Origin: a virus
Strand: one strand, 5' to 3'
IMG/VR virus record: IMGVR_UViG_3300002835_000026
Length of the DNA stretch: 64,000 bases
Part shown: one piece after another, positions 9,001 to 50,455 of the stretch
How positions within the stretch are numbered: the first letter of the stretch is position 1
How the letters are laid out: the number at the start of each line of letters is the position of its first letter
Program-made: the position numbers and the translations under genes
The notes under the pieces: model-generated
Databases searched by the model: none
What the model was told of the DNA's origin: nothing
What the model saw: only the letters and a program-made list of their open reading frames with translations

Positions 9001-10599
9001 ACCTTCAAGACCTGAAAGACCTGAAGTTCCGTTTGTACCGGATAAACCACTTAGACCTGAAGTTCCAGTGCCACTTAAGCCTGATAAACCACTTGTGCCT
9101 TCTAAACCACTTAGACCTGAAGTACCATTTGTACCACTTGTTCCTGATAAACCTGAGAGACCTGATGTACCAGTACCACTTAATCCACTTAGACCAGATA
9201 TACCTTCTAAACCTGAAAGTCCTGAGGTACCATTTGTTCCTGATAAACCTGAAAGTCCTGAGGTACCATTTGTACCATTAGTTCCTGAGAAACCACTTAT
9301 ACCAGATAAACCACTTATACCTTCTAAGCCACTTATACCTGATGTACCAATTGTACCACTTAATCCACTTATACCTGAAGTTCCAGTTCCACTAAGACCT
9401 GAAAGACCAGATGTACCTTCTAAACCAGATAAACCTGATAAGCCTGATAAGCCTGATAAGCCTGATAAACCAGTTCCTGAAAGACCAGATAAACCTGAGG
9501 TTCCAGTACCACTAAGACCTGAAAGTCCTGAAAGTCCTGTTCCACTAAGACCAGAAATTCCTGATGTACCTTCTAAACCTGATAAACCTGAAATTCCGTT
9601 TATACCTGATAAACCGCTTAAACCAGAAGTGCCAGTACCACTTAAACCTGAAAGTCCTGATGTACCTAATATGCCACTTAGACCTGATGTACCTTCAAGA
9701 CCTGAAAGACCGGATGTACCATTTGTTCCTGATAAACCTGAAAGTCCTGAAGTACTAGTACCACTAAGACCTGAAAGACCAGATGTACCTTCTAAGCCTG
9801 AAAGACCAGATGTACCATTAGTACCATTAGTACCTGAAAGACCTGAAAGTCCTGATATACCTGTACCACTTAGGCCTGATAAACCACTTAAGCCTTCTAA
9901 ACCTGAGAGTCCTGAGGTACCATTTGTACCATTAGTTCCTGATAAACCACTTAGACCTGATGTACCAGCTCCTGACAAACCAGATAAACCTGAAGTTCCA
10001 GTACCACTAAGACCTGAAAGTCCTGATAAACCTTCTAAACCAGAAAGACCTGAAGTTCCATTAGTTCCTGAAAGACCGCTCAAACCAGAAGTTCCTGTTC
10101 CACTTAAACCACTTAGACCTGAAGTTCCTGTACCACTTAAACCAGATAAACCACTTATACCTTCTAAACCTGATAAACCTGAGGTACCATTAGTTCCTGA
10201 TAAACCGCTTAATCCTGAGGTGCCAGTTCCACTTAATCCTGATAAACCTGAAGTGCCAGTACCACTTAAACCTGATAAACCTTCTAAACCTGAAAGTCCT
10301 GATGTACCATTTATTCCTGATAAACCACTTATACCAGATGTTCCAGCGCCACTTAGTCCTGAAATACCTGATGTACCTGTTCCTGATAAACCTGAAATAC
10401 CTGAGGTGCCAGTACCACTTAAGCCTGAAATACCTGAGGTGCCAGTACCACTTAAACCTGAAAGACCTGATAAACCTGAAAGTCCAGATGTACCAATTCC
10501 ACTACTACCTCCTGAAGTAGGTACTTCAAAAGAAGCTATAGATACTTGATCTAAAAATCGTACATTGTTTCTTGGTATGGAGTTATTGATTCTGGCCAT
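31..10599 (-). CDS. Giant Gly-X-Ser repeat (collagen-like) tail fibre with 8 aromatic CBM5/12-like modules and a C-terminal intramolecular chaperone (Peptidase S74-like)
   Basis: 3522-aa ORF; Gly at nearly every third residue; C-terminal YYSDERLK...[15 protein letters not shown]...[15 protein letters not shown] chaperone motifs; follows the neck genes. Confidence 0.85.
580..10500. repeat. Degenerate 9-bp tandem repeat array (plus strand cctga-nnnn type) encoding Gly-X-Ser
   Basis: Visible 9-nt periodicity; near-exact 126-bp units around 600-980; interrupted by 8 unique-like modules between ~1230 and ~5090. Confidence 0.95.
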
Positions 10600-14640: not shown

Positions 14641-16317
14641 TTAAATAGTATTTAATCCTTGGATATAGATCTTACCATAAAATTCTGGTCTTAACATTTT
14701 CTTAGCGTAACGAGTTAATAAACCTTTACGTGGAGTAAATGTATCTGGATCGTACACAAGTGGAGTCATAATTAATGGAACATATGGAGCAAATACAGCA
14801 CCAGCTTCTAAGAATTGTGAACCTCTGTAACCTAATAACATGATATTTTCAGTCATGTAAGGGTTTTTGTAAACTGTGTAACGGCCATTTAATTGACCTG
14901 CTTTTTGTACACCGAAAGCGTATTCCATTTGAGCAGCATCACCATTGTTGTTAGAAGCAAATCCTGGGATTGATTCTAATACTGTAGCTACAGTTGGAGA
15001 TGTAACGATGAAGTTAGCACCACCTCTTAAAGTTAATTGGTGAATTTTGTTGCTTAATTTTTGGATTTTAGTTCCTAAAGTTTGGAACCATTGGCCTTGT
15101 GTGTTGTAGAACGCTGAACCAGCTGTTGAGAAAGTAGCTGTAGCTGGGTTGTAAACGTTGTTGTTAACTGTTGACCAGTACTCAGTACCCGCAGCAGCAT
15201 CTTCGATCAACATATCTAAGATTTCAAGATCAATTTCCATTGAAATGTACTCAGACATGATGTTTGTTACTTCAGCTTCAGCATCAATGTTTTGGTAAGC
15301 AGCTAAATCTTGTGAGAATTCAGGTGTCCATACTGCTTTCAATTTTTTAGTTTTAGCAGTGATGGCTTGTGATTGCATTTTAACATTAATCTCAGGAATA
15401 ACGATAGATGAGTTATCTTGAGCATTTGGAACTGCGAATGATGACGAATCTTCAAAATCACCTACGTTATACGGGCTCATTTGAGTAGCTTTGTTATACA
15501 AAATTGTATAAGCACCTGAGTTAGCAATTGTAGCTGAAGAAGCACTCACAAAGAATGTAATAGTGTTGTTTGTGTAATCAAATGTAGTAAACTGTTGTAA
15601 GTTATTAGCAGCAGTAATAGCTGAACCTGATAAAATTAAGAAACCTCTAACAGCATCCATATCAAATGAAGGGATGTTTGTAGAAGCAGTTACTAATGTG
15701 ATTGCTTTGATTTGACCTGCAGCAACTGAAGCTGAGTAATCTGAATCAAAGTTAGTTGTAGCTAACGTACCTGAAACGATAAGTGAACCAGTTGCAATTG
15801 TGATTGCCGATGATGAGAATTGGTTGGTAGAGTAAGTGAAACGACCTGTTCCGTATAAACCACCTGATGGTGCTGGAGTTGCAAACGGGAATTCACCTGT
15901 TGCATTTCTGTTACCATACAATGAACTACCTACTGCAAATGGATCTTTAGCTGTTCCGTATTGGAAGTCTAAGAAGAACACAAGACCTGAAGGCATTGAC
16001 ATTGGTTGAACTGAAACAAATTCTTTTGCTGCAATTTGAGCAAATACTTTACGTACTAAAGGTAAAGCAATACCAGCCCAGTTTTCTGATTGACCAACAG
16101 AGAATGAACCTGCTGATGAACCTCCACCTGTATCTGATTGTTCCATAACTAATTGCTTAGCTTGGTTTTCTAATAATAAAGACATGTTGTTTGCCTCTAC
16201 ATTTGTTAAGCCTTCTAATAGACCCGTTTTGTTCCATTTAGAAGACAATTTAGCTGCATCGCTTTGGAGTGATTTCCAAGGACTAGCTGATTCTAATAAT
16301 GATTGAATTGTGCTCAT
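14641..16317 (-). CDS. gp23: Major capsid protein, T4 gp23-like
   Basis: LLENQ, LPLVRKVF, VSVQPMSMPSGLVFFL, TAKTKKLKAVWTPEFSQDL, APYVPL, TPRKGLLTRY; strongly biased codons. Confidence 0.95.
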   Translation of the reverse strand: MSTIQSLLESASPWKSLQSDAAKLSSKWNKTGLLEGLTNVEANNMSLLLENQAKQLVMEQSDTGGGSSAGSFSVGQSENWAGIALPLVRKVFAQIAAKEFVSVQPMSMPSGLVFFLDFQYGTAKDPFAVGSSLYGNRNATGEFPFATPAPSGGLYGTGRFTYSTNQFSSSAITIATGSLIVSGTLATTNFDSDYSASVAAGQIKAITLVTASTNIPSFDMDAVRGFLILSGSAITAANNLQQFTTFDYTNNTITFFVSASSATIANSGAYTILYNKATQMSPYNVGDFEDSSSFAVPNAQDNSSIVIPEINVKMQSQAITAKTKKLKAVWTPEFSQDLAAYQNIDAEAEVTNIMSEYISMEIDLEILDMLIEDAAAGTEYWSTVNNNVYNPATATFSTAGSAFYNTQGQWFQTLGTKIQKLSNKIHQLTLRGGANFIVTSPTVATVLESIPGFASNNNGDAAQMEYAFGVQKAGQLNGRYTVYKNPYMTENIMLLGYRGSQFLEAGAVFAPYVPLIMTPLVYDPDTFTPRKGLLTRYAKKMLRPEFYGKIYIQGLNTI

Positions 16318-16345
16318 TTTTTTTAAAATTTTTTTTTAAATTGTT

Positions 16346-17404
16346 TTATTTAATAATTCCTGCTATTTTTTGCATTCTTTTGAATGTGTCATTAACTTCT
16401 ACAATAGGTTTTCTTGCCGATGGCATGATACCTGTTGTTTTAGATGCTAAACTAGTTTTCAATGATTCATTAACATGTGATTTAGAAGTTTCTTTTAAAC
16501 CTTCTGATAATGTTTCGAATACTAATTTAGTTTCTTTTACTGTTGATGCTTTATCAAATGCATTTAAAACCTTTACTTTTTGTGACTCGGTTAAGTTTTT
16601 AGCTTTGAAAATTTTGTTAGTGTAAAGTAATTTCGCATTTAACAAATTAACTTCATTGATGTCAGTTCTCATAGTAGCAATAGTTGACATAGCTTCTTCT
16701 AACTCTTTTTTAAGTTTAGTCATTTCTTCTTTGTCTTTCTTGTCTTCTTTGTCACCTTTTTTCTTAGCTTCGTCTAATGCGATTTCAGCTAAAATTTCAT
16801 CAATTGAAACTTCTTCTTCTTCACTTTCCATTTCTTCGCCTTCTTCACCTTCCATGCCTTCACCAGCTTCTAATTCGCCAGATTCAACCATGTCTTTAAT
16901 TACGTCTTCAATGAATGATTTTAACTCTTCTTCAGTCATGTCTTCAATGTTGATTTCTTCTTCAGTTTCAACTTCTTCTTCACCTTCTGCTTCGTTTAAT
17001 TCTTCTTTTTTCATTTCGTCGTCTTCAGCATGCATGTTTTCGTCTTTCATGTCTGCTTCTAATTCAGCTAATAATTCGTCAAGATTAAGTTCATCTAATT
17101 CTTCTTCAGCTACATTACCATGTGCTGTTGGACCTTTTGGGTTGTTGATTAGATCTTCTTCTTCTTTAACTTCTTTGTAGCCCATTAAGTTTTCTTCTTT
17201 TTTAGAATACATTTCTTCCATATCATCCATCTCTGCTTCTTCAACATCCATTTCTTCCATTTCTGCAAGTTTAGCTGATAGCATAGATTTTAATTGTGGA
17301 GTAAAGTGTTCTTCAAGTGCTGCTTTTGCGCTTGCTATTGCTGTTTCTTTAACAACTTTAGCGTCTTCGATTGCTTCTTTAAGCAAATCTCTGTTTTTAC
17401 TCAT
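16346..17404 (-). CDS. Prohead scaffold / core protein (gp22-like); start probably MSKN at 17404
   Basis: Very acidic coiled-coil protein directly upstream of the capsid gene; many L-x-E sites; ends FKRMQKIAGIIK. Confidence 0.75.
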   Translation of the reverse strand: MSKNRDLLKEAIEDAKVVKETAIASAKAALEEHFTPQLKSMLSAKLAEMEEMDVEEAEMDDMEEMYSKKEENLMGYKEVKEEEDLINNPKGPTAHGNVAEEELDELNLDELLAELEADMKDENMHAEDDEMKKEELNEAEGEEEVETEEEINIEDMTEEELKSFIEDVIKDMVESGELEAGEGMEGEEGEEMESEEEEVSIDEILAEIALDEAKKKGDKEDKKDKEEMTKLKKELEEAMSTIATMRTDINEVNLLNAKLLYTNKIFKAKNLTESQKVKVLNAFDKASTVKETKLVFETLSEGLKETSKSHVNESLKTSLASKTTGIMPSARKPIVEVNDTFKRMQKIAGIIK

Positions 17405-17541
17405 TTGTCCTAAAATTTTGTTTGGGAAATACACTTATTTAAAGTGTAATAGAATTGTTATTTATAGATACTGCAAATGCGATTGCGGGCAGTATATTCT
17501 AATATACATATGTCCAGATTATCTAAAACACACAGAAGTGT

Positions 17542-17575: not shown

Positions 17576-18169
17576 TTATTTACAATTACACTTAAACGTG
17601 TTTAAGTCTTTTGATGTAGGGGCAATGTTAAGAAAATAATAACAATACTTAGTGTTACCTACTTTTAATTCTTTATAGAATCCTTTAGGTATTGCCGCGT
17701 TTGTAGGTACACGTTTAGGTACTTTATCGTAATCTAATCTAACATATACTGATACAGTAGTTGTTTTTGCTTGTTCACGTTCCCATATTTCTAATGCTTT
17801 CCAAGGACCACGATTAAGTGATTGTTGTTGCATTGCTGAATTAATATAGGTAAATGTTGAGTATAACATTTCTTTAGTACAGTTAAATGAAGCAGCAGGA
17901 GCAATATGTCCTTTGTCCCACTCATTATTAACATAATCTTCGTTATCAGATGTTTTAATGTTTTTGTCTGTGTAGAATTCCATACCTGCTCTAGAAGCGG
18001 TACCTGTAGGACATTTAACAGTATAAGTAACCCATTTAGGTTGTTCTAAAATTTCAGAATATACAATACGAAAGTTAGGAGTTTGATAGTTAACACTATC
18101 TCTTAATTTAGTTTGTCCAAAAACTACTGTTGATAGGCAAACTAATATTACTAGAAATAAATTTTTCAT
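17576..18169 (-). CDS. Secreted DNA/RNA non-specific endonuclease (NucA / Endonuclease_NS family); start probably MKNLF at 18169
   Basis: DKGHIAP (DRGH-type) active site, STFTYINSAMQ...LNRGPWKALE, IPKGFYK; signal peptide MKNLFLVILVCLSTVVFG-Q. Confidence 0.9.
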   Translation of the reverse strand: MKNLFLVILVCLSTVVFGQTKLRDSVNYQTPNFRIVYSEILEQPKWVTYTVKCPTGTASRAGMEFYTDKNIKTSDNEDYVNNEWDKGHIAPAASFNCTKEMLYSTFTYINSAMQQQSLNRGPWKALEIWEREQAKTTTVSVYVRLDYDKVPKRVPTNAAIPKGFYKELKVGNTKYCYYFLNIAPTSKDLNTFKCNCK

Positions 18170-18170
18170 G

Positions 18171-18776
18171 TTAGAATAACGGACATGATCCATTAGCACA
18201 TAGAATATCAGTAATAATTGAATTAATTTTACCGTATTGATTTGTACCTGGAGTATATGATTCGTTTAAGTTGGTTGGTTGCATCCATGAACCAGGATTA
18301 GAAGGTGTTGAAACAAAATCCCAACATAGTAATTCAAAGTCATCTTGTACTTCCATTACATTACCTTTTTGTTCTAACGAACCCATTCCTCTTGATGATA
18401 CACCTACTGTAATACCACTTTCAATTAATGCTTTTAAGATGTTACCAGATGGAGTAGGTAAAATTTCAATTAAACCCATTACATTATCTCCATTCCACCA
18501 GCATTTTTTAATATTATGTGAAACATTTTTTAAGTTAATAATTGAAGAATCTGGGTGGTCTAATTCACCTAATGCTCTGTTTTCTCGAACTGATTCCATG
18601 TAGCGATCCATTTCACGTTCCCATAATTCTTTAGCGTAATATCTACCATTACCGTTTTTTACTTCGACAGTAGCTAACACACCTTCTACTAATATGTTAC
18701 CTCCAGGATTAGTTCCTTCAGTTAACCTAACAGCTTTAGGAGAAAATAATTGTGTTTCAATTAATACTTGTCTCAT
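18171..18776 (-). CDS. gp21: Prohead maturation protease, T4 gp21-like
   Basis: NGNGRYY, GELDHP, VSH, TPSGNI, GVSSRGMGS, DFVSTPS. Confidence 0.93.
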   Translation of the reverse strand: MRQVLIETQLFSPKAVRLTEGTNPGGNILVEGVLATVEVKNGNGRYYAKELWEREMDRYMESVRENRALGELDHPDSSIINLKNVSHNIKKCWWNGDNVMGLIEILPTPSGNILKALIESGITVGVSSRGMGSLEQKGNVMEVQDDFELLCWDFVSTPSNPGSWMQPTNLNESYTPGTNQYGKINSIITDILCANGSCPLF

Positions 18777-27861: not shown

Positions 27862-28113
27862 TTAAACTCTAGAACCAGCTGCATTGCCAGTTGATGATTT
27901 GAACCATGGTAAACCTTCACGTTGTTTACAATGTTCTTTAAATAATTTTTCAGTGTATTTAATACCATATAAATAATACTCACGTTTTTTTCTTTCACCT
28001 TGAGGTATTAATGCTGGTCCATCCCAGTTATGATACTTGCCTTCCCAAACATACGCAATTGTTCCGTCTGCTTTTGTTAATTTTTTAGTTGGTTCAAATT
28101 TTTTATTTTCCAT
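27862..28113 (-). CDS. Small hypothetical protein (HNWDGPA motif)
   Basis: 83-aa ORF with its own promoter; H-x-x-DGPA...EYYL motif common in phage proteins. Confidence 0.7.
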   Translation of the reverse strand: MENKKFEPTKKLTKADGTIAYVWEGKYHNWDGPALIPQGERKKREYYLYGIKYTEKLFKEHCKQREGLPWFKSSTGNAAGSRV

Positions 28114-29168: not shown

Positions 29169-30485
29169 TTATTTTAATAATGATTCGGCAACATAAATAC
29201 CATGTGCACCACTAACTGTAATACCTCTCGCACTCAACGCATCACCAACAAAGTGTACATTTGGATATTTAGTTAATGCTAAATTAGTATAGTCTACTAA
29301 TGGTTCTGGTGATAAATATTTTACTTCAGGTATATAAACTCCCCAATCATCGCCTAATGTTGGAAATATTTTTTTCATATCATCAATAAAATCTTCAATA
29401 TATTGAAAATATCCTTGAAATTCTTGTTTTATATCTTTTAATCCAATCTCATCAACTTGAGCTGTATTAATAAGAGTTCCTTCAGATGTGGTTGATGGAT
29501 TACGAGTACCATTAGGTGAATAATATAAACCTGTATTGTTAGGTTTAATTTGTAATTTATTTACTAATTCTCTAGACCAAGTAAATGGATCTTCAATATC
29601 CTTAATTTCCATAATAATACCAAAATTAGTCATTCCATTTAGATATTTAGGATCTTTTTTAGCGTGACCATTGTAAGTAACATCACCATATGTTTCTTCT
29701 ACAGCAACATAAGCCGCGTTATTGTTTGTACAAAATGAACGTAATGAAACACCTTTATCATCAAATTTTCTATATAATTTAAAGTCATATGAAATATCAA
29801 TTAGTTTTTGAAAGTGTTCTTGTGGTGCTTCAAAACGTACTCCAATTTGAACTGATTTAGGTTCATCTGGTAGTTTATATTCATTTGCTAATTGTTGAGC
29901 AAAATCAATTCCTGATTTACCTACTGCAAATATAAGTTCATCATAAGTACCAATCCAAGGACTACCTGTAGTGGTTTCACCAAATATTTCACTAAAATTA
30001 AAATCAATAGTTTTAACTTTAGTTTCCCAAAAAAATCTAACACCTTTAGATACTAAATAATCATACCAATTTTTAGCAATTTCAGATAAATAATCTGTAC
30101 CTACATGCCATACAGGAAATAAACGTAAACCGAAATATGGTTTAATAAAATCTGGTTCAGCAATTGGGTTTGAGCATTGTACTTCTTCAGGTTTAGGATG
30201 GAAACGTTTAAAGTTAGTAATAACTTGATCCATTAATTCCATTGCTTTTTCCTCGCCTGTGTACTTAGCTAATTGACCACCAATAGCTGTATGGTATGTT
30301 AATTTACCATCACTCCATCCACCTGCTCCTAACATTCCTGTCATCACCTCTTCAGGTAAGCGGTTATATGGATCTTTACCCATATCAATGATAGTAATTA
30401 AATTACCATCATATCCATTATCTACTAATTTAGTTGCAGCATTAATGCCTGCTACTCCGGCTCCAACGATTACAATTTTTTTCAT
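29169..30485 (-). CDS. FAD-dependent oxidoreductase (uncharacterised dehydrogenase family)
   Basis: IVGAGVAG Rossmann motif, GAGGWSDGKL, AVGKSG, IGVRFE, SFCTN, HFVGD...RGI. Confidence 0.88.
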   Translation of the reverse strand: MKKIVIVGAGVAGINAATKLVDNGYDGNLITIIDMGKDPYNRLPEEVMTGMLGAGGWSDGKLTYHTAIGGQLAKYTGEEKAMELMDQVITNFKRFHPKPEEVQCSNPIAEPDFIKPYFGLRLFPVWHVGTDYLSEIAKNWYDYLVSKGVRFFWETKVKTIDFNFSEIFGETTTGSPWIGTYDELIFAVGKSGIDFAQQLANEYKLPDEPKSVQIGVRFEAPQEHFQKLIDISYDFKLYRKFDDKGVSLRSFCTNNNAAYVAVEETYGDVTYNGHAKKDPKYLNGMTNFGIIMEIKDIEDPFTWSRELVNKLQIKPNNTGLYYSPNGTRNPSTTSEGTLINTAQVDEIGLKDIKQEFQGYFQYIEDFIDDMKKIFPTLGDDWGVYIPEVKYLSPEPLVDYTNLALTKYPNVHFVGDALSARGITVSGAHGIYVAESLLK

Positions 30486-30611: not shown

Positions 30612-31217
30612 TTATTTAAAGAATGACATATTATTATTAACAGCATATAAAAAATCTTGAGAAAATTTATAAGCTTGTTTAATTCTTTTCCCCATATATT
30701 CTTTATCACCCATAGGTTTTCCTTGGTGTACTGAATTGATAAAAGTAATTAACATATTTTTGTCTACTTCTTCTTCTTTACTTGTTGTATTGATTTTATT
30801 TAAATAAGATATAGCTATATCAGGTGTTGTACTTTTTATTGCTTTTACCATAGCATCATATGCTTGTGTATTTGACATTTTATTTATATCAGCTGTGTTT
30901 CGTTTTGCATATGAAACCGGCATTTCAGTTTTTACAACTTGCTGGATTGATTGTTTTTGGTCTTGAGAAAAACCTGGAGATGCTAACAATGATGATAATA
31001 TAGCAGCAGTCATTAAGCCTTTTTTAGCATATGATTTAATTTTTTCTAATACATCATCAAATACTCCTTCATTTAATGTATTAATTATATCATCAGCTAT
31101 TTTTTGCTCTTCTGGTGATAAAGTAGTTTCTTGAATATCTTCTCTATATTTACTTTCAGTAATAATCCCAGCAAGTTTTTGCATACGGATAAATTGCTCG
31201 TTTAATGGTTGCTTCAT
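30612..31217 (-). CDS. Hypothetical capsid-cargo protein with N-terminal RMQKLAGI and an internal hydrophobic segment
   Basis: MKQPLNEQFIRMQKLAGIITE; GLMTAAILSSLLASPGFSQ. Confidence 0.65.
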   Translation of the reverse strand: MKQPLNEQFIRMQKLAGIITESKYREDIQETTLSPEEQKIADDIINTLNEGVFDDVLEKIKSYAKKGLMTAAILSSLLASPGFSQDQKQSIQQVVKTEMPVSYAKRNTADINKMSNTQAYDAMVKAIKSTTPDIAISYLNKINTTSKEEEVDKNMLITFINSVHQGKPMGDKEYMGKRIKQAYKFSQDFLYAVNNNMSFFK

Positions 31218-31483: not shown

Positions 31484-32596
31484 TTATATTCCTGCTAGTT
31501 TTTGCATTCTAATGAATTCTAAAGATAAAGATTCATTTATTGCTGATGGTGATTTTATATTTTTTACAATAGAACTTATAGACTCCCAACTTTCTTTAAT
31601 TAATTCAATTATAGCATATGCTAATAATATATAATGACCAAATTCCCATATCTTTATAAGATCATCTGCGTAAGGAATATAAGCAGAATATTCTTTTATT
31701 TTTTCTTCTACCCAACTCCAAGAAGAGTTAAAAACTCCTGAAATTTCCATAACAGCTGATATAAGTTCTGGAATAACATGAAATTCCATAGCTTTAGGGC
31801 CTCCTATTTTTTCAATAAATTTAGATATTAGTGTTAATATTTTAGAACTTGCCCAAGAACCAGTTATACTTACAATACCCATTACTGGATTTAATGCTAC
31901 TTTTATTATGTTTCCTAACCATGTTTTCCATTTACTATTTTCTTCTGCTTCTAATAAAACATTAGGATTATTTAAATGTTCAGTAGTTTGTTTATTAAAT
32001 ATATTTTCTTGAATATTTTTTCCTGCTTCTTCTGCTTTTGTAATAACTGGTTCAACTACTTTGTCGCCAATAGCATCAATCATAGTACTTGGGTCTTCTA
32101 TTTTACCCTTAAAAAAACTATCTATTTTAAGTATGTGATTTATTTCAGCTATTAAATCATCTCTATCTGGGCCATTTAGTGCTTTTTTAAAGGCTTCTGT
32201 TATTTTATTTTTATTTTTTTCTATTAATCCTTTAATTGCTGTTTTTCCTTTTGAAATAAGATCAGTAAAAGCTTTTTTAATTTGAGCCCAAACTTTTACA
32301 ACATAATTTTTAATTCCACCAAAAGTAGATTTAACTTTTTCCCATCCTGATCTAAACCAATCTGCTATACCTTCGTTTACTTGAGATTCAAATAATACTA
32401 TATTTTTTCTATGAAAACTAGAATGTGATTCAAGATATAAAGATAATGCTTGTTTTTCACCACTAGTAAAATAATCATTATTTGGTATAGATTTAATAAA
32501 TTCTTCTTGAACTATTTTTATAGTCTTAGGTATTAAAGAAAATGAAATTTCCTTTTTTACTTCTTTAATTAATTGTTTTAATTCTGATTGTTTCAC
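31484..32596 (-). CDS. Helical protein with hydrophobic segments and both terminal cargo motifs
   Basis: GTG start MKQSELKQLIKE; ends EFIRMQKLAGI. Confidence 0.65.
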   Translation of the reverse strand: MKQSELKQLIKEVKKEISFSLIPKTIKIVQEEFIKSIPNNDYFTSGEKQALSLYLESHSSFHRKNIVLFESQVNEGIADWFRSGWEKVKSTFGGIKNYVVKVWAQIKKAFTDLISKGKTAIKGLIEKNKNKITEAFKKALNGPDRDDLIAEINHILKIDSFFKGKIEDPSTMIDAIGDKVVEPVITKAEEAGKNIQENIFNKQTTEHLNNPNVLLEAEENSKWKTWLGNIIKVALNPVMGIVSITGSWASSKILTLISKFIEKIGGPKAMEFHVIPELISAVMEISGVFNSSWSWVEEKIKEYSAYIPYADDLIKIWEFGHYILLAYAIIELIKESWESISSIVKNIKSPSAINESLSLEFIRMQKLAGI

Positions 32597-37253: not shown

Positions 37254-38653
37254 TAGTTTTTATTTTCTTTATTCCAGTCTGATAAACTCATCATGCCTAC
37301 TTCAGTATCATAATCATCATAATAATTATTTTTTACTCGTTGACCTATTTTTTGAGCTTCAGCTTTTGAATTTAAAGTATGTCTTAATTTTTTACCGGTT
37401 TTATCTACATTAATCCATACTACCCACTTTTCACCTTCTGCTGCTTCTTCTTTAACCATTGGTTTTTTAAGTTTAGCCATTATTTTTTCAGATAATGTTG
37501 AGTTTGTTAAAGATTTAACTTCATCCATGTTCTGTGCATTTACAGCGTTAAAAACTTCTTGACCATATTTTGACACTACTTCTTTCTCAGACTTTCCAGC
37601 ATCAATCATTTTTTTAGCCGCAGCAATATCCTGTTTAAATTGTGTTGGTTTAGATGATTTAACTCTATATTTTTCTTGTGCAGGAGTAACTTCATTCATT
37701 GGTTCATCCATTGCTGGAATAATATCTTCGTAATCCTGCATTGACAATGTTTCTTTACTTTTATTGATTTCAATAGCTTTTTCAGCCACATCATGTAAAT
37801 CCATATCCGCTTTAGCGTCTTCACGAGCAAATTCTAACATACGAATAAATAAAGGTACATCCATAGTAACTGTATCTACTGCATCTTTAGCTTCTGCTTC
37901 TTCTTCGTTAACTTCTTCTTTAACTAAACCACCTTTAAGGATAGTCATAATAGATGAGTAAGCATCATCAATACTATAATCATAGTATTTAGCTACACCT
38001 TTAACAAATTGTTCTACTTTTTTTCTTAATTCAGGATTAATACTACCTCCAGTAACAAACATTTGAGCTTTTTCTTCTTGAATCATAGCATCTAAAGCTG
38101 GTTGTTTATCTTCAAATTCTAAATAATGTTTAGCTTTATCCATATAATCAGCAGCTAGATGGATTTTTTCTTGCCACCAATCAGGGAAATCAACTTCTTG
38201 ATCCATTTGATCATATTTATCTAGCATTTTATATAAACTAGCGGCATATTTAGCTATACGATAAACAGATGCTTTTAACATATCTGGTTCATCATCTTGA
38301 TGGCCTAAATCAATATCTTCTTTTGTAGCTTTTTTAATGATTGATTTTTGCAATTCATCAGGTAATGATTTTTGACCACCTTTTAAAGCAGGATCAGTAT
38401 CAAACTCTTTTGAAAATTTTTCATCTACAGGACTCATAAGAGTCTTTTTAATCATTTCACGTACTTTATCTTTATTCATGTTTTCTGCTGTTTTTTTAGC
38501 TATATTAGTAGCACGTCCATACATCACTTTTTCAGCATCTTTACCATAGCGTTTAACTAATGATGATTTTGCGGTTTTAAGTTGCTTAATAACTTCCTCA
38601 CGTTTTTTTAATTCATTAGGAGTTAATGTTTTTTCAGTGATACTTTGTTTCAT
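37253..38653 (-). CDS. Modular hypothetical polyprotein
   Basis: 466 aa; short modules separated by x-x-E sites. Confidence 0.7.
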   Translation of the reverse strand: MKQSITEKTLTPNELKKREEVIKQLKTAKSSLVKRYGKDAEKVMYGRATNIAKKTAENMNKDKVREMIKKTLMSPVDEKFSKEFDTDPALKGGQKSLPDELQKSIIKKATKEDIDLGHQDDEPDMLKASVYRIAKYAASLYKMLDKYDQMDQEVDFPDWWQEKIHLAADYMDKAKHYLEFEDKQPALDAMIQEEKAQMFVTGGSINPELRKKVEQFVKGVAKYYDYSIDDAYSSIMTILKGGLVKEEVNEEEAEAKDAVDTVTMDVPLFIRMLEFAREDAKADMDLHDVAEKAIEINKSKETLSMQDYEDIIPAMDEPMNEVTPAQEKYRVKSSKPTQFKQDIAAAKKMIDAGKSEKEVVSKYGQEVFNAVNAQNMDEVKSLTNSTLSEKIMAKLKKPMVKEEAAEGEKWVVWINVDKTGKKLRHTLNSKAEAQKIGQRVKNNYYDDYDTEVGMMSLSDWNKENKN

Positions 38654-40776
38654 TATCTTAAAATTCTTTTTAACATTGGAAACATATTTTCATTAATTTG
38701 ATTTAATTTACCTTTAGCTTTTTTAGCTTCAGCCATATCAGGATAACTATCATCATAAACATCCATGCTGTCATCATAATTATCATCATTATCATCACCT
38801 GGATTATCTCCAGCATCATATTGATTTAAGAAGTCTTCCAATTTCATTCCTGGATTTTTCTGTATTGCTGTAAACATATCATTTATTATGTCTTCATTGT
38901 CCATATTTGATAAAATATCATATATAGCATCAGCACTATCATCATTTATAGCTTCATTAATTGGAGCTGTATCTAAGATATGAGCTTTAGTAAAATAAGT
39001 AATTGTATTAGCAATTTGAGTAATTAATTTTTCATCACCTAATGCTTTTGCTTCAGCATATGCTGCTTGTAAGTTAGATTGAATACCTGATACTTCAGTT
39101 GTTTTACCAGCCATCATATCTGATTCAGGAGCATCAACTACTTCAGTATCGTCTACTGTTATGTCTTCAACTTCTTTATCTTTTTTAGCTTCACTAAGAC
39201 TGTCATTAGCTAACTTACCCATGTCCACTAAATTTTCTAATTCTTCACGTTCATCATTATTAAGATCTGTGCCATCTTTAAATTTAGCAACAGAAATATA
39301 AACGTCAGAATAATCATTATAAGATCCACCTTCTACTTCAATTGAATTAACATCAACTTCTTTTCCGTTTAACATTACTTTGTTTGATTCTGCTTCTTTT
39401 AAGGTAGTACCATCAGAAATTCCTTTAATACTTGAATGTAACATTGCTAAGAAATATTTCATTTCTATTATTCTATCTTCCATCTCTCTATCTGTGAATT
39501 GACCAAACATGACAAGATTTTTAACTATATCTAAATTCCTAAAAGCAGTTTCTATAGCAGTAACAGTTTTTCTTTCAACATCTTTAGGCTTAGTAAAGTC
39601 CCAATTATCTCCAATAGTAGATATAGCTTCATCTAAAGGATTTTGCAACATATCTTCTAATTTTTCTGCTTCTTCTTCTGATAAACCAGGATAAGAGTTC
39701 ATTAATTCTTCAGCATCATATTCACGCATCTCATCTATAAAAAGATCACCTTTATTTTTAAAATATTTAAATAAAAACTCAGCATCATAGTTGTTGTCTT
39801 CTAATTCTACTTCTTCTGCTTCAGCTAATGGATCATACATGTTATTTAAAGCACCTGGTTCATCAATATCTTCTGTAGAATCTTCATTTAATTCAGCTAA
39901 AATCATTTCTTTGATTTTTGATTTTAGTTTAGATTTAGTCATCTTTTCTTTTTCGATTTCTTCACCTTTTTTAACTCCAGCACCATATATATTTTCTTCA
40001 CCTTTTTTACCTAAACGTTTAGCTGATTTAGCTCTATCATAATCAGTATCACCTTCGCTCATTTGTGTATTATTTAATTTAGATAAATCGTTTGGATCAA
40101 TAACAACTATTAAATTATCAATTTCTTGACCATATCCTATTGGACTATCACCTACTTCATTTTTTACTCCAATAGAAGTTAAATAATTACTCATTTCATC
40201 TGCTAATTTATCTACTGTATTATTTAAAAATGATTTTTCTTTATCTTTTAAATAATCTCTATCACCAAAATCCATAGAATTTTCTATTTCTTTAAAATTA
40301 TCACTGTTAGTAACAACTAAATAAAGTTCATTATCTACTTTATAGTATTCAACATTTTTAAATTTACCAAAACTTACTTTTGAATCTTTGTAAGCACCTT
40401 CACCTTCATTCATATCATCTAAGAAAAAGTCTTGACCTGGGAATAAAGTAGCTAAATCAGTTAATTTTAAATTAACTTGATAAATAGATGGAGCCATTTC
40501 TTGGTATACTTCTGAATTATATTTGTCTGCTATAGTTTGGATCATAATGTCATCATTTGATGCAATCATGACTTTGTTTTTTGCTGGGTATACCCAGATG
40601 TCTAGTGTTTCATCAGCATTTTTATTTGGAGGTACCATGTGGTAGATATTATCATCTCCCATGATTCTTTTCCATGATGAAAAATTTAACATGTTAGTAT
40701 TAGATCCTTGATTTTCTTTAATAATACCCGCAAGTTTTTGCATGCGAGCTAATTGTTCATTTAATGTTGGTTTCAT
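38653..40776 (-). CDS. Acidic modular polyprotein with N-terminal RMQKLAGI
   Basis: 707 aa; MKPTLNEQLARMQKLAGIIKE; late motif at 40795-40804. Confidence 0.7.
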   Translation of the reverse strand: MKPTLNEQLARMQKLAGIIKENQGSNTNMLNFSSWKRIMGDDNIYHMVPPNKNADETLDIWVYPAKNKVMIASNDDIMIQTIADKYNSEVYQEMAPSIYQVNLKLTDLATLFPGQDFFLDDMNEGEGAYKDSKVSFGKFKNVEYYKVDNELYLVVTNSDNFKEIENSMDFGDRDYLKDKEKSFLNNTVDKLADEMSNYLTSIGVKNEVGDSPIGYGQEIDNLIVVIDPNDLSKLNNTQMSEGDTDYDRAKSAKRLGKKGEENIYGAGVKKGEEIEKEKMTKSKLKSKIKEMILAELNEDSTEDIDEPGALNNMYDPLAEAEEVELEDNNYDAEFLFKYFKNKGDLFIDEMREYDAEELMNSYPGLSEEEAEKLEDMLQNPLDEAISTIGDNWDFTKPKDVERKTVTAIETAFRNLDIVKNLVMFGQFTDREMEDRIIEMKYFLAMLHSSIKGISDGTTLKEAESNKVMLNGKEVDVNSIEVEGGSYNDYSDVYISVAKFKDGTDLNNDEREELENLVDMGKLANDSLSEAKKDKEVEDITVDDTEVVDAPESDMMAGKTTEVSGIQSNLQAAYAEAKALGDEKLITQIANTITYFTKAHILDTAPINEAINDDSADAIYDILSNMDNEDIINDMFTAIQKNPGMKLEDFLNQYDAGDNPGDDNDDNYDDSMDVYDDSYPDMAEAKKAKGKLNQINENMFPMLKRILR

Positions 40777-43870: not shown

Positions 43871-46800
43871 TTATTTATTTTTAATACTGTCTTCCCAATT
43901 TCTAAACATCATATTACCTTTTTTGTAAGCTTCTCTTTCAATTTCAGGTAAATCTCCGTCTTCATTTGTATTTGTTGTACCTATATTATTTAATCTATTA
44001 TCTAAATTTTGTTCATGATGTATCATTTCATGTGAAAATGAACGTAAAACATCTTTAGGATGTCTATTCATAGTAAATAAAGTAATTGATTTTTCTTCTG
44101 GGCTGTAAAATGCTGTTTTGCCAAATACATTTTCAGCATTTGCTTTATCATTGTTAATAAATTTAACAACAGGTAATGGCTTAATATTCATTCCTTGATT
44201 AACCATATATTTAGTTAATTCAGGAATATATTTTTTATAGTCATTATTTTCTTTACCTTCTTTTAATTTTCCTTGTCCACCTGCTTTTAATAACGGACTA
44301 TCTTTAGGTAATTTTGTATTAATATAATCAATAGTATTTTGAATTGTTTTATATAAATCTTTTTGAAATTCTTTATATCCTTCTGGATTATATTTTCTTA
44401 TTTGTTCTATATTTGAGTGAAAATTAGTTAATGTACTTCTTGAATCCCACCCTGGATTTGTATTTATTCCTAAAAACCATCCTCCCCAATCTGCTATTTT
44501 TCTTATAAATTTTTGAATATCATTACCTTTTTCTCCTTTAGATAACCAATCCATTGTACTTTTATTAAACATTTTATTTTTACCAGAATAAAAATCTAAA
44601 ATATCTTGATAATAAGAGTTTAACTCAAGTACAGCTTGTTTTAAATTATCTTTATTATTATTTATATATTCATAACTATTAAATTTTATAGCTTCTAAAA
44701 ATTCACCTGTTTGTGATGGAAATTCTTCCCAAGTACCATAATATAATTCTGGTTTTGAAGGGTCATATTTAGTTTTTAATGGCTTGTGATTTACAGCTGG
44801 ATCTTTTGCATGAATTAATTCATGACGTAAAGAAGATAAAAGAGCTTCTTTAGGATTATCTCCAGTTAATGTTTTCCAAATAGATTCTAATGTTCCTTCA
44901 AAAGCAGGAAACCAATAATTTCCATTAATTCCTATAAAATTATCTTTAAAATTAGTATTATCTTGTGTTAAAAACTTAGCTGCTGATCGGGTGTCACCAT
45001 CATCATAAATGTATGGTACAAATTCTGCTTCTTCTCCTGAAGCCATTTTGTATTTGATAGGATTAGTTAATCCTACTTTAAAGTCTTTTTCTTTTAAAGC
45101 TTGTATAAAAATAGGAATTAAATTTCTTAATTTTGTTTCTTCTTCATCACTTAATGATATAATACCTTCTTTTAAATCTTCTACTTTATTAACAGCTAAG
45201 ATATAATTTTTTATGTTATCAATTCCACCTTCAGGACCTTTAAAAGATATTCTTTCTTCTTGTTCATCATAATCACCAGTATTATTAAAGAAATCTCTCA
45301 CTACACTTTCAGGTTCATCTTCTAACCAATTATATTCCCAATTGTCTTCATAGTTCCATCCCGGTCTGTAGGCAAAAGGTGTTATTTTATATTTGTCAGA
45401 TAATTTGTCTCCATCTAATGTAATTCTATAATCTGTTTTTACTCCAAAATTAGATCCTTTTTTATAGAAATTTTTATTACGAGTAAATGAAATATAATAT
45501 AATTCATTACCTAAATAATTTTCTTCAGAGGTATTTATTTTATTAGACTGAAGGATGCCTTTTAATCCATCGGCTGATGTGTAGTGATATAAAGGACCAA
45601 CTTGCTTACCTTCTTCTAATCCACCAGGTGTATCTAATTTTTTACCTGTTTTAACATCTGTATCATAATCACAAGTTCCTTCATTTAAATCAGGATTATT
45701 ATCATGTCCACATATACTACCATCTGGTAATTTGTTATGGCAAATATATAAATCCTTACCACCATCAGCTAATTTCCAGGTCCAGCCACAGTTATCACAA
45801 ATAACTTCTGTAGCTGTTACTAGTTCTTGAATGACAGTAGATAAAGTATTAAATATTTCTGTTTTTTCTTTTACTTTTTCAGGAATAAAAGATAAAAATG
45901 CTTCTTGTCCTTTTTTTAATGCTTGACGAGCATCAGTTCCACTTGTATCTGATTGAGTAATTATAGGAGCTAATTCAACATTTTCATATTTACCTATACC
46001 TTTAGTTTTTGATGCTAAGTCTACAAAATCATCATCTTTACCATCTCTAGCTCCAATAACCCATATTACATCTTCATCTTGATGATTTTCAATATACTCA
46101 TATATAGCTGTAATTGGTGATTTAGCTGGTTCTACTTTTACTTTTAAAGGTAAGTATTTTTTATATATATCCCAAGTTAAAAGTGATTCAGCTTGAGTAA
46201 TTCCATCTCTTGTTCCAGAACCAACATAAATAATAAATTCATCTATTTGAGGAAATTGCTCTAATGCTTTTTCAACAACTTCAAAATGACCTTTGTGAGG
46301 TGGTTTAAAACCACCACCATAAAGTGCTACTGTTTTCTTTGAATCTGCTTCAATTAAAGGTAAGATTAATTCTCTAACTAATCCTTTAAATAATTTATTT
46401 TCTAATAAACTACTAACTGCGTCTAATGCTGCTTGTTTATTATCACCTTTAGGTGTATCAACTTCTCCACTTTTAATAGACACCATTGATTTAAATATAC
46501 CTTTTATTCTATTTTTAGAACGTTCGTTTTTTAATTTAGATTTTAAATCTTGTAATAATGTTTTAAAATCACCATCTATATTGTAGTTGTCAAATAATTT
46601 TTTAACAATACTCCAATTTGAAGATTTCCAAACCTCAGTTCTATTAAGTTCTTTAAAATTATCTAATGTTACTATACGTAATGTTAATCCAGCACTTGAT
46701 AAATTAAATTCATATTCTTGATTCGCTTCAAGTTCAGGTACATTAGTAATACCTAATCTAGTGAATATTTTTTTAGGATCTTCTTCTAAACAAATTACTT

Positions 46801-47254
46801 TAGCTAAACCTAAAAGTAAACCTTGTACTTCAGCTGGATAATCTAAGAATGTATTTTTAAATGTTGATTCTTCTTCACTAGTAGAAATAATATTATCTAT
46901 TTGAACAAATTCATCAGACATACCAACTATAGGGTATAATACAGTTACTAATTCACCACTACTAAGTGATTTTTTTCCTTTATATTTATTACTTTTAAAA
47001 GGTACAATAACTGAATCAGGGAGAGAAGCAAAATATTTAGCTAAATCTTGTTTAGCTAATTTTTTATCATTACTATCTAAATGAACAATTAAATCAATGT
47101 CACCAAAGTCTTGTTTAGTTCCTGTATTATAAGAACCAGTTGCTTTAGCGTCCTTAAATCCAGGGAATTTAGATAATACTTTATTTATATAATCTTGAAC
47201 AGTTTTTTCTACTGCTGCCCTAGATATTCTATTTCCACCTGCTGAACCTGACAT
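43871..47254 (-). CDS. Polyvalent protein: Pol-beta nucleotidyltransferase + HIGH nucleotidyltransferase + Zn finger + ADP-ribosyltransferase-like domain + two HExxH metallopeptidase-like domains
   Basis: GSY...GDIDL and VQID; GGGFKPPHKGH; CDNC...CH; LYHYTS/ISFTR/EQEE; RHELIH; SHEMIHH. Confidence 0.75.
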   Translation of the reverse strand: MSGSAGGNRISRAAVEKTVQDYINKVLSKFPGFKDAKATGSYNTGTKQDFGDIDLIVHLDSNDKKLAKQDLAKYFASLPDSVIVPFKSNKYKGKKSLSSGELVTVLYPIVGMSDEFVQIDNIISTSEEESTFKNTFLDYPAEVQGLLLGLAKVICLEEDPKKIFTRLGITNVPELEANQEYEFNLSSAGLTLRIVTLDNFKELNRTEVWKSSNWSIVKKLFDNYNIDGDFKTLLQDLKSKLKNERSKNRIKGIFKSMVSIKSGEVDTPKGDNKQAALDAVSSLLENKLFKGLVRELILPLIEADSKKTVALYGGGFKPPHKGHFEVVEKALEQFPQIDEFIIYVGSGTRDGITQAESLLTWDIYKKYLPLKVKVEPAKSPITAIYEYIENHQDEDVIWVIGARDGKDDDFVDLASKTKGIGKYENVELAPIITQSDTSGTDARQALKKGQEAFLSFIPEKVKEKTEIFNTLSTVIQELVTATEVICDNCGWTWKLADGGKDLYICHNKLPDGSICGHDNNPDLNEGTCDYDTDVKTGKKLDTPGGLEEGKQVGPLYHYTSADGLKGILQSNKINTSEENYLGNELYYISFTRNKNFYKKGSNFGVKTDYRITLDGDKLSDKYKITPFAYRPGWNYEDNWEYNWLEDEPESVVRDFFNNTGDYDEQEERISFKGPEGGIDNIKNYILAVNKVEDLKEGIISLSDEEETKLRNLIPIFIQALKEKDFKVGLTNPIKYKMASGEEAEFVPYIYDDGDTRSAAKFLTQDNTNFKDNFIGINGNYWFPAFEGTLESIWKTLTGDNPKEALLSSLRHELIHAKDPAVNHKPLKTKYDPSKPELYYGTWEEFPSQTGEFLEAIKFNSYEYINNNKDNLKQAVLELNSYYQDILDFYSGKNKMFNKSTMDWLSKGEKGNDIQKFIRKIADWGGWFLGINTNPGWDSRSTLTNFHSNIEQIRKYNPEGYKEFQKDLYKTIQNTIDYINTKLPKDSPLLKAGGQGKLKEGKENNDYKKYIPELTKYMVNQGMNIKPLPVVKFINNDKANAENVFGKTAFYSPEEKSITLFTMNRHPKDVLRSFSHEMIHHEQNLDNRLNNIGTTNTNEDGDLPEIEREAYKKGNMMFRNWEDSIKNK

Positions 47255-48216
47255 TATGCTGCTTTATATTTATTTAAATTAGAATCATCAGGTAAAAATT
47301 TACCTTTAAGACCTAAGCGACTTTGATTAGTAATCCAATATTCTTGAAGATCTAATGGAATATCAGCTCTAGTTGAGTCTAATATTCTTAAATATATATC
47401 TAATACTTGATTTAATTTATCTTTAGGTAGTTTTTTCTTTAAAACATCCATTAACTCAAAATAATCATTTAATACATCTTGAGATAAATTAAGTTTAAAT
47501 CCTTGGTTTAATACATCTAATGCTTCTTGAGGATTAGTCGCTACTATATCTCCTGTTTCTTTATCCTTAACACCAGTACCATGACTAAAAGTTTTATTTA
47601 ATGCTTGGAACATAGCTACCATTAATTGGGTTCTATGTAAACCTTTTACATTATCTTTATAGGTATTTGAATAGTAACTAAAATTTAGCCAATCTAAATT
47701 ACCTACATTAATATCTATTTGTACTGATTTATCATTAAGTATTTCTCCTTTTTCATTGTATTGAGGAAAATTACAAAATATTGAGCCATTACCTGCTGCT
47801 TTTAAATCAGTGTCTATATATTCTGATTTCTTTTCAAGATTAGTAGCTATTAATTCTAACATAGCTCTTAATTTGCTTTGAGTTTCTGATGCTGAACGTG
47901 AACGTTTTCTAATTTTTTCATATAGAGTGTCAAATTCAGCTTTATCAATATTCCAATTAGATAATAATGGATTACCATCTTTATCCATAAATTGGTCAAC
48001 ACTCATACCTAAATCAATATCACCAGATTCATCTTTTTTACCAACTGAACCTAAAGTATTAAAGTTAAATTTTACTTTTGGGTATACTTTATTTAATTCA
48101 GCAGTGAAATTTTTAAGAGTGGGTTGGATGTATTCTTTTTTGATACTAGAGGTGGTGCCAAATACGTTGCCACCTTCTAAAGTTATTGATTTTAAAAGCT
48201 CAATTAAAGAAATCAT
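47254..48216 (-). CDS. Pol-beta superfamily nucleotidyltransferase
   Basis: LGSVGKKDESGDIDLG and VQIDIN; late motif at 48229-48238. Confidence 0.75.
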   Translation of the reverse strand: MISLIELLKSITLEGGNVFGTTSSIKKEYIQPTLKNFTAELNKVYPKVKFNFNTLGSVGKKDESGDIDLGMSVDQFMDKDGNPLLSNWNIDKAEFDTLYEKIRKRSRSASETQSKLRAMLELIATNLEKKSEYIDTDLKAAGNGSIFCNFPQYNEKGEILNDKSVQIDINVGNLDWLNFSYYSNTYKDNVKGLHRTQLMVAMFQALNKTFSHGTGVKDKETGDIVATNPQEALDVLNQGFKLNLSQDVLNDYFELMDVLKKKLPKDKLNQVLDIYLRILDSTRADIPLDLQEYWITNQSRLGLKGKFLPDDSNLNKYKAA

Positions 48217-48244
48217 CTTAATGTTTATATATAAATATTAATAC

Positions 48245-49996: not shown

Positions 49997-50455
49997 CTAT
50001 AGTGTAAAGTCCTTAGTAAAGAACTTACCTAATATATTATCATTATAGAATGATTCTGGGTGTTCTAATACTTTATATGTAAATAAGGCTTGTGTTTCGT
50101 AGTAAGTTAGTAATTTTTTATTAGGTGCTAATTTAATTATAGTGCGAGTGAACAAATCTTGTTTACCGTCTTTAATTAATTGCATTACTTCTTTATTAGA
50201 GCCGTAATATGTTTCCCAATCTGATTCTTTGGTTATTATTTTAGTAGTTGGTTTACGGCCAACACCAGTTAATTCGGCTACTTCTTTTTTACCTAATTTT
50301 ACTTTTTTATTATGGTATAATACTTTTTTACCTATATAAGATTTATTAGTATCAGTATTTTTAACTATATAAATAAATCCAAATGTATCTTTAGGAAAAT
50401 CGTTGAGGTTAGTGATGGGTTTACTATTGTAAACCCAAGTTGGTAATGTTAACAT
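49997..50455 (-). CDS. GIY-YIG family nuclease-like protein
   Basis: FGFIYIV...SYIGKK, YYGS, YYE, FYNDNI. Confidence 0.75.
   Translation of the reverse strand: MLTLPTWVYNSKPITNLNDFPKDTFGFIYIVKNTDTNKSYIGKKVLYHNKKVKLGKKEVAELTGVGRKPTTKIITKESDWETYYGSNKEVMQLIKDGKQDLFTRTIIKLAPNKKLLTYYETQALFTYKVLEHPESFYNDNILGKFFTKDFTL

Follow-up and report, generated by a model that had tools for sequence, protein, structure and literature searches.

Protease-type motifs at the joints of a predicted polyvalent cargo polyprotein in a T4-like lake phage

How might a phage use one long chain built of several unrelated enzyme modules? This question is raised by a gene of IMG/VR virus record IMGVR_UViG_3300002835_000026, analysed here as a stretch of 64,000 nucleotides (nt; the window). 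The minus strand of 43871-47254 is a single open reading frame (ORF) of 1127 amino acids (aa), in which the original prediction, made from the letters alone, had seen a packaged set of enzymes with protease-like sites at every domain junction. We consider it probable that the product is a cargo polyprotein of a T4-like phage, which would be loaded into the prohead, cut at its joints by the Peptidase_S77 (S77) prohead protease and ejected with the DNA. Judged from its genes, the source is a T4-like phage of lake water: the window has genes for a large terminase of the T4 type, a gp20 portal (E 9e-65) and a gp23 major capsid protein (E 7e-74), and near-identical DNA occurs in >20 metagenome runs of lake and fresh water (2016-2024). 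From ~10.6 kb onward the GC content is 27-31% and nearly all genes are on the minus strand, as are all the modules and neighbouring genes of the window described below.

All motifs quoted in the original prediction are present in the ORF, with the ADP-ribosyltransferase (ART) strings at residues 555-560, 587-592 and 663-668, HELIH at 811-815 and HEMIHH at 1075-1080. A full-length AlphaFold2 (AF2) model built on 63 homologs is confident at residues 7-285, 306-475 and 1005-1127. A second model, of residues 549-999 on 68 homologs, has a mean predicted local distance difference test score (pLDDT) of 84.4. Profile and structure searches domain by domain, which the original prediction had proposed as a check, bore out its list of domains.

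The first module, residues 1-285 (46400-47254), is predicted to be a nucleotidyltransferase (NTase) of the family X/Pol-beta type, with a G-S ... D-x-D motif at residues 40-54 and, in the model, the palm fold; this assignment does not imply polymerase activity. The NTase block of the AF2 model has a pLDDT of ~88, and Foldseek matched it over ~220 columns to Pol lambda, Pol beta and Thermus PolX (TthPolX; E 2e-6 to 6e-5). Pfam NTP_transf_2 matches residues 24-83 with 20.3 bits, just below the cut-off of 21, and PF14792 is precomputed on homologs of the module. A PDB sequence search with the domain gave no match. It is followed by a low-confidence amphipathic helix, residues 286-302 (46349-46399), which lies between the motifs LLE↓N and LIE↓A (↓, proposed cut). 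Split relatives starting at the next module have an N-terminal leader homologous to this helix.

That module, residues 303-477 (45824-46348, ending IQE↓L), carries the motifs P-P-H-K-G-H (H-x-G-H at 320-323) and S-x-T-x-x-R (438-443), and is predicted, with a Rossmann-like fold, to belong to the HIGH-signature nucleotidylyltransferases (NadD/NMNAT/PPAT-like). Pfam CTP_transf_like covers residues 311-444 with 26 bits against a cut-off of 21 (E 1e-5), Foldseek matches are to NadD and PPAT with TM 0.66-0.75, and the closest PDB sequences, themselves weak matches, are archaeal nicotinamide mononucleotide (NMN) adenylyltransferases (NMNATs). Next come a Zn ribbon of 48 aa (residues 478-525, 45680-45823) with CxxC...C...C at 486-516, which ends in LNE↓G, and a 23-aa spacer peptide (residues 526-548, 45611-45679) that runs from LNE↓G to LEE↓G. 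For the whole protein, Protein Atlas lists no structure; its feature matches were to unnamed clusters confined to viruses, and IrrE/M78 and LPD23 were weak leads.

Residues 549-696 (45167-45610, ending LKE↓G) are assigned by structure prediction to the ART fold. The first 149 residues of the second model match Tpt1 (Z 9.4 and 9.0), DarT (Z 7.3 and 7.2), Scabin and then many ART toxins; for Tpt1 and DarT the root-mean-square deviation is 2.6-3.5 over 89-119 residues, at a sequence identity of 10-17%. Residues K550, G553, Y556, H557, S589 and G615 are invariant in the family, and Y622, E664, E666 and E667 are kept in at least 90% of 55 ART sequences. Pfam Tox-ART-HYD1 reaches 20.7 bits on residues 555-596 and 24 bits in the comparison made for the family, both below its cut-off of 25, and matches 17 of the 55 family members at E 0.01 or better, with the N-terminal half of the Pfam model alone aligning. 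The ART profile retrieved DarT alone from the PDB sequences, at E 0.09. The best structural matches are thus the RNA 2'-phosphotransferase Tpt1/KptA and the single-stranded DNA ADP-ribosyltransferase DarT, and this likeness is a hint, though a speculative one, of a nucleic-acid target; unlike Tpt1, the module has no N-terminal RNA-binding lobe. The original prediction had pointed to T4 Alt as a parallel. Membership of the R-S-E clade (Alt, ModA, ModB) was rejected, as the first catalytic position is His (Y-H-Y-T) and a tblastn search of 50,697 phage records, T4 included, gave no match to T4. Since the module appears to be of the H type, the comparison with Alt holds as an analogy and not as kinship.

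The remaining two modules are predicted zincin metallopeptidases, in both of which HExxH is invariant within the respective family. The first, residues 697-999 (44258-45166, ending LKE↓G), has a HExxHxxD motif with invariant H811, E812, H815, D818, P819, Y838 and E844. Its fold matches are weak, to DPP III/M48 by structure and to Tox-MPTase2. Foldseek of the model of residues 549-999 gave no match at E 0.001 or better, and for its residues 285-449 the structure comparison (VIA) yielded generic helical matches. The zincin call is drawn from the motifs and the weak DPP III/M48 rows. HExxHxxD is the signature given for phage-type metallopeptidases (MPTases) by Iyer et al. (PMC5512222). The second zincin, residues 1000-1127 (43874-44257, pLDDT ~80), is present in all 63 aligned near-length homologs, with H1075, E1076 and H1079 invariant in 63/63. 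It has sub-threshold matches to MPTase-PolyVal (15.7 bits, cut-off 27.5), M91 and DUF6782; that to Pfam Peptidase_M91 is weak and covers residues 1049-1109.

We then asked if the motifs between these modules could be there by chance. The sites are LLE↓N (residues 283-285), LIE↓A (300-302), IQE↓L (475-477), LNE↓G (523-525), LEE↓G (546-548) and LKE↓G (694-696 and 997-999). In total number, [LI]xE is not enriched, with 14 occurrences against 13.9 ± 3.3 in shuffled sequences. Its placement is not a matter of chance: the Glu of 6 of the 14 lies within the 81 inter-domain linker residues, which make up 7.2% of the protein (binomial P = 2.5e-4). The longer motif L-x-E-G occurs 4 times against 0.55 expected, a number reached by 42 of 20,000 shuffles. 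All junction sites are in low-pLDDT inter-domain segments of the AF2 model, and seven other [LI]xE are inside predicted helices or strands. One of the quoted sites, LLE↓N, is really of the form x-L-E: L284 is invariant, position 283 is M, T or L, and E285 is kept in 116 of 121 homologs.

More than 1000 homologs were found, in which a core of NTase, HIGH module and Zn ribbon together with the C-terminal zincin is common, while the modules between or after them vary. Close relatives differ from the 1127-aa protein by whole modules bounded exactly by L-x-E-G, and lack the HExxHxxD zincin, or the ART, or the 23-aa spacer. A lake metagenome contig omits exactly the 69 nt of the spacer (window 45609-45677), with a 5-nt microhomology, and contigs of several metagenome runs stop at module joints (44266, 45158-45193 and 45610).

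An exhaustive HMMER search with residues 549-999 returned 615 proteins, many of which are a stand-alone ART (~110-280 aa) or a stand-alone HExxHxxD zincin (~300-340 aa). These proteins open with diverse leaders of 5-40 aa, several of which differ by just a few substitutions from the leader of T4 IPII/IPIII (T4 record NC_000866). When one match per 50%-identity cluster was counted, [LIVM]xE directly preceded the residue aligned with G549 in 63 of 70 stand-alone ART matches and stood at the LKE↓G position in 30 of 32 stand-alone zincin matches, against a per-position chance of 1.7%. Where a split relative begins with the HIGH module or with the Zn ribbon, its leader terminates at the LIE↓A or the IQE↓L position, respectively, and in stand-alone NTases the C-terminal end is this short helix with a site on either side. 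By alignment, then, the joints correspond to leader ends in some stand-alone or split relative, with the exception of LLE↓N.

Two further leader-tagged arrangements were seen. In L058 (5971-8376, plus strand), an 801-aa protein has a T4-like 10-aa leader directly before the ART and further modules, and is thus a leader-tagged polyvalent form. In L016 (3983-7424, plus strand), a complete 181-kb IMG/VR phage, seven consecutive small genes share the same 10-aa leader (M-I-K-L-x-x-[IL]-L-x-E), and one of them is an ART homolog; this run resembles the internal protein (IP) locus of T-even phages. The contigs encoding two stand-alone homologs are just 1.6-5.2 kb and lack useful gene context, and a tblastn search of 50,697 cultured phage records with P0206 (an ART) and P0154 (a zincin), both stand-alone proteins, found nothing.

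These leaders also bear on the idea that the embedded zincins cut the chain themselves, in cis or in trans, either ahead of packaging or once the chain is injected, with the prohead protease uninvolved. Two such modules with invariant HExxH are present, and autoproteolytic release by MPTase domains has been predicted for polyvalent proteins, citing P1 DdrB (PMC5512222). Against this, the same [LIVM]xE ends the leaders of zincin-free stand-alone ARTs of 110-280 aa, and it is a gp21-type motif that also punctuates the scaffold and capsid protein of the source phage. A requirement for Glu at P1 is not known for zincins. Self-cleavage thus appears to us quite unlikely.

A candidate for the processing enzyme is encoded in the window itself. 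The gene at 18171-18776 encodes a gp21-type prohead protease (Peptidase_S77, Pfam E 2.6e-31; PHROG head maturation protease, E 5e-56), which has an N-terminal LIE site, as in T4 gp21 (PMC9026906). Motif scans and profile matches located [LIVM]xE sites in a scaffold-like protein of 362 aa and the gp23 major capsid protein, together at 14641-17434. Five [LI]xE↓[GA] sites were counted in the scaffold-like protein and four [LIVM]xE sites at the N-terminus of the capsid protein; a further protein of the head module, 445 aa long, opens with a leader of 13 aa that ends LIKE↓G. S77 also accompanies the ART elsewhere: it is encoded in 8 of 9 long IMG/VR contigs with ART homologs, including 5/5 of those at least 90% complete, a share taken by itself and not set against a base rate for large phage contigs. 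The 1127-aa gene itself borders on an array of leader-tagged genes (~30.6-48.2 kb), which is on its downstream side.

We hypothesized the following course of events. The 1127-aa gene would be expressed together with the head genes, and the chain would enter the scaffolding core, possibly by way of internal leader-like helices or of a leader-tagged upstream partner; both routes of loading are a guess. During head maturation, the S77 protease would cut after [LIVM]-x-E, at E285 and/or E302, and at E477, E525, E548, E696 and E999. The products would be a PolX-like NTase, an NMNAT/NadD/PPAT-like adenylyltransferase, a Zn ribbon, a Tpt1/DarT-like ART and two zincin metallopeptidases, and the released modules would be ejected with the DNA. 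The five or six enzymes of the original prediction become, in this scheme, six folded modules, one of them the 48-aa Zn ribbon, and two short peptides. Each in-silico check able to refute the packaged-toolkit reading instead favoured it, with support from the predicted folds, the position of the sites in linkers, the S77 protease and the homology of joints with leader ends; cleavage, presence in the virion, injection and targets we infer. The enzymes point, speculatively, to a chemistry centred on nicotinamide adenine dinucleotide (NAD), in which NAD synthesis would be combined with ADP-ribosylation, perhaps of nucleic acid.

Several observations weigh against this scheme. The 1127-aa protein starts M-S-G-S-A-G-G-N, and an N-terminal leader is absent both from it and from 112 NTase-first relatives, with just a few opening with a 5-aa LxE leader; the capsid-targeting sequences of T4 have been shown to work at N-termini only. 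The exact E302 and E477 columns are conserved in just 32 and 72 of 121 homologs, with alternative [LIVM]xE sites nearby. Minimal relatives of 640 aa have no Glu at the joint preceding the C-terminal zincin, which fits cutting being dispensable where no module is inserted, but also means that the joint is not universal. Finally, the two LKE↓G joints are identical over 12 bases, so that the joints can act as recombination handles, and could serve recombination alone.

This last point leads to a different account of the joints, in which genes tagged with capsid-targeting sequences were fused, the leader ends were left behind as linkers, the short stretches of conserved DNA there serve the shuffling of modules only, and the result is an intact multi-enzyme chain, packaged or not. 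The deletions in relatives and metagenome variants, which run exactly between such joints and in one case show the 5-nt microhomology, would be expected of such handles, and N4 virion RNA polymerase and ArdC-type polyvalent proteins are transferred uncut (PMC5512222). However, an identity over 12 nt is expected from the codon bias of a 28% GC genome. In distant relatives the L and E persist beside a variable middle residue and variable flanks (LNE, LEE, LKE, LDE, LQE, INE, LFE, ITE), a retention that points to selection on the protein, and the Glu decays where no module is inserted. We therefore regard joints that are merely relics as unlikely, and continue to favor a cargo chain cut by the prohead protease.

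We next considered expression of the gene. An upstream gene of 320 aa (47254-48216) overlaps it by TAATG, and the two are probably co-transcribed. The 320-aa protein shows a Pol-beta-like G-S ... D-x-D motif and starts with a leader of 6 aa that ends LIE↓; a homolog of it precedes gp088 in phage immuto (see below). It had been considered as a tandem paralog of the 1127-aa protein, but BLASTP found no significant similarity between the two, and the proposal is thus unsupported by sequence. Upstream of the operon is a promoter-like motif, ATATTTATA (48230-48238, minus strand), which is common to the portal gene, p284 and p707. The coding strand has 11 copies of ATATTTATA, and 8 are placed directly upstream of a start codon, in a short gap between genes (13680, 22060, 23976, 35430, 40796, 48230, 53184 and 63601, all minus strand). 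TTTGGC(C/T), and not ATATTTATA, is found before the primase, 29169-30485 and 27862-28113. The motif looks like a late-type promoter element, and its sharing suggests, at the level of sequence, co-expression with head genes. The T4 late-promoter consensus TATAAATA is not enriched in the window (21 occurrences, 21.9 expected), and therefore allows no call of late expression. Metatranscriptome contigs match parts of the 1127-aa gene at 85-95% identity, which does not in itself show transcription of the source phage.

The nearest cultured relative is Flavobacterium phage vB_FspM_immuto, whose gp088 (907 aa) has 47% identity across 55% of the query; it was the only match in a tblastn search of the 50,697 phage records, T4 included, with the 1127-aa protein. 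The immuto gene is annotated as an NMN adenylyltransferase (NadR-type NMNAT), and the order primase, exonuclease, hypothetical gene and then this gene is common to the immuto locus and the window. Together with the NadD/NMNAT-like HIGH domain, this setting would suit a cytoplasmic enzyme of nucleotide or NAD metabolism that is never packaged. But the NMNAT label spans 175 of 1127 residues and leaves ~85% of the chain unexplained, a scan of 30 ORFs revealed neither Nampt nor any other gene of NAD salvage, a leader-tagged array lies downstream, and the modules are homologous to leader-tagged proteins. We consider a purely cytoplasmic role highly unlikely. Gp088 resembles the 1127-aa protein in gene order and in the style of its joints. 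It differs in lacking the ART and HExxHxxD modules and in having other modules after the C-terminal zincin.

Comparison with the T4 internal proteins shows both shared and divergent features. In T4, unrelated proteins enter the prohead core by means of capsid-targeting sequences, propeptides of 10-20 aa that gp21 removes (PMC9026906, PMC5694885, PMC3012670). As in the case of IPI, IPII, IPIII and Alt, a gp21-type protease is encoded here, and stand-alone homologs of the modules carry [LI]xE leaders of 10-20 aa, some nearly identical to those of IPII/IPIII. As with Alt, an NAD-using ART would arrive with the DNA, and as in T-even IP loci (PMC3012670), cargo genes with one shared leader stand in arrays. 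Unlike the T4 internal proteins, the 1127-aa chain strings together up to six modules with internal sites and has no N-terminal leader of its own, and the bodies of those proteins have no sequence similarity to it.

The protein is also a polyvalent protein as defined by Iyer, Burroughs, Anand, de Souza and Aravind (2017, PMC5512222): it unites at least two disparate predicted activities (NTase, HIGH transferase, ART and a pair of zincins), and the phage that encodes it has a portal and a terminase. As in the proteins described there, which are predicted to be injected, unrelated enzyme domains (Pol-beta NTase, ART, zincin MPTase, Zn ribbon) are joined in one phage polypeptide. Release by embedded peptidases is proposed in that work, in which text searches met with no mention of S77 or of conserved inter-domain linkers. 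In the 1127-aa chain, by contrast, the joints have the motif of a prohead protease with a gene of its own and share homology with the ends of capsid-targeting leaders. A third parallel is provided by the ejection and inner-body proteins of phiKZ, 201phi2-1 and SPN3US, which are packaged in the head and cut after the Glu of a short motif, often at several sites, by the gp21-related gp175/gp245 (PMC9026906, PMC5694885). There the motif is S/A-x-E and not L/I-x-E, and processing is mainly removal of propeptides, with separation of an enzyme chain not described (PMC9026906, PMC5694885).

Relative to the cited literature, what appears to be new is a multi-enzyme chain whose joints are candidate sites of a separate prohead protease, homologous to the ends of capsid-targeting leaders. 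If this is correct, it joins T4 capsid targeting and gp21 processing with the injected polyvalent proteins, which are separate in the cited papers, and provides a concrete mechanism of release, by a head protease acting in trans at defined joints. It would also provide a rule for reading such genes, in which cutting at [LIVM]xE in linkers gives the list of injected enzymes, and would make the large uncharacterised family of leader-tagged Tpt1/DarT-like ARTs and HExxHxxD zincins candidate injected effectors. The cultured relative immuto makes testing practical.

A broader picture can be put forward tentatively, as one that falls somewhat short of an even chance. T4-like phages of lake and sea may share a general plug-in system for injected proteins, in which each module exists as a leader-tagged gene or as a bead of a polyprotein, and the protease motif is both release site and recombination joint. 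Internal leader-like helices, and not an N-terminal tag, would load the chain. The family of >1000 members with its core of NTase, adenylyltransferase, Zn ribbon and zincin would then be a widespread injected kit for NAD- or nucleotide-directed takeover or anti-defence, including an ART of nucleic-acid type.

Other genes of the window carry related features. A 707-aa protein (38653-40776), for which Pfam gave no match, contains x-L/I-x-E↓A five times where 1.2 would be expected, and is probably another multi-cut cargo chain. The peptide R-M-Q-K-L-A-G-I-I forms the C-terminus of the scaffold-like protein (16346-17434) and of a 370-aa protein (31484-32596), and also stands just after the leader of the 707-aa protein and of a 201-aa protein (30612-31217). 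Two stand-alone proteins from metagenomes, an ART and a zincin (P0124, P0257), also have this peptide in their leaders. A gene for a DNA/RNA non-specific endonuclease with a signal-peptide-like N-terminus (17576-18199, Pfam E 3e-23) is placed between those of the prohead protease and the scaffold, and overlaps the former. The gene at 49997-50455 encodes a SegE-like GIY-YIG homing endonuclease (Pfam E 8e-28), the family of which is labelled 'NAD synthetase' by PHROG and in the immuto record, probably a mis-annotation. At the start of the window, an ORF of 3522 aa (31-10599, minus strand) lies where the GC content is 39-46%, much higher than in the remainder of the window (27-31%).

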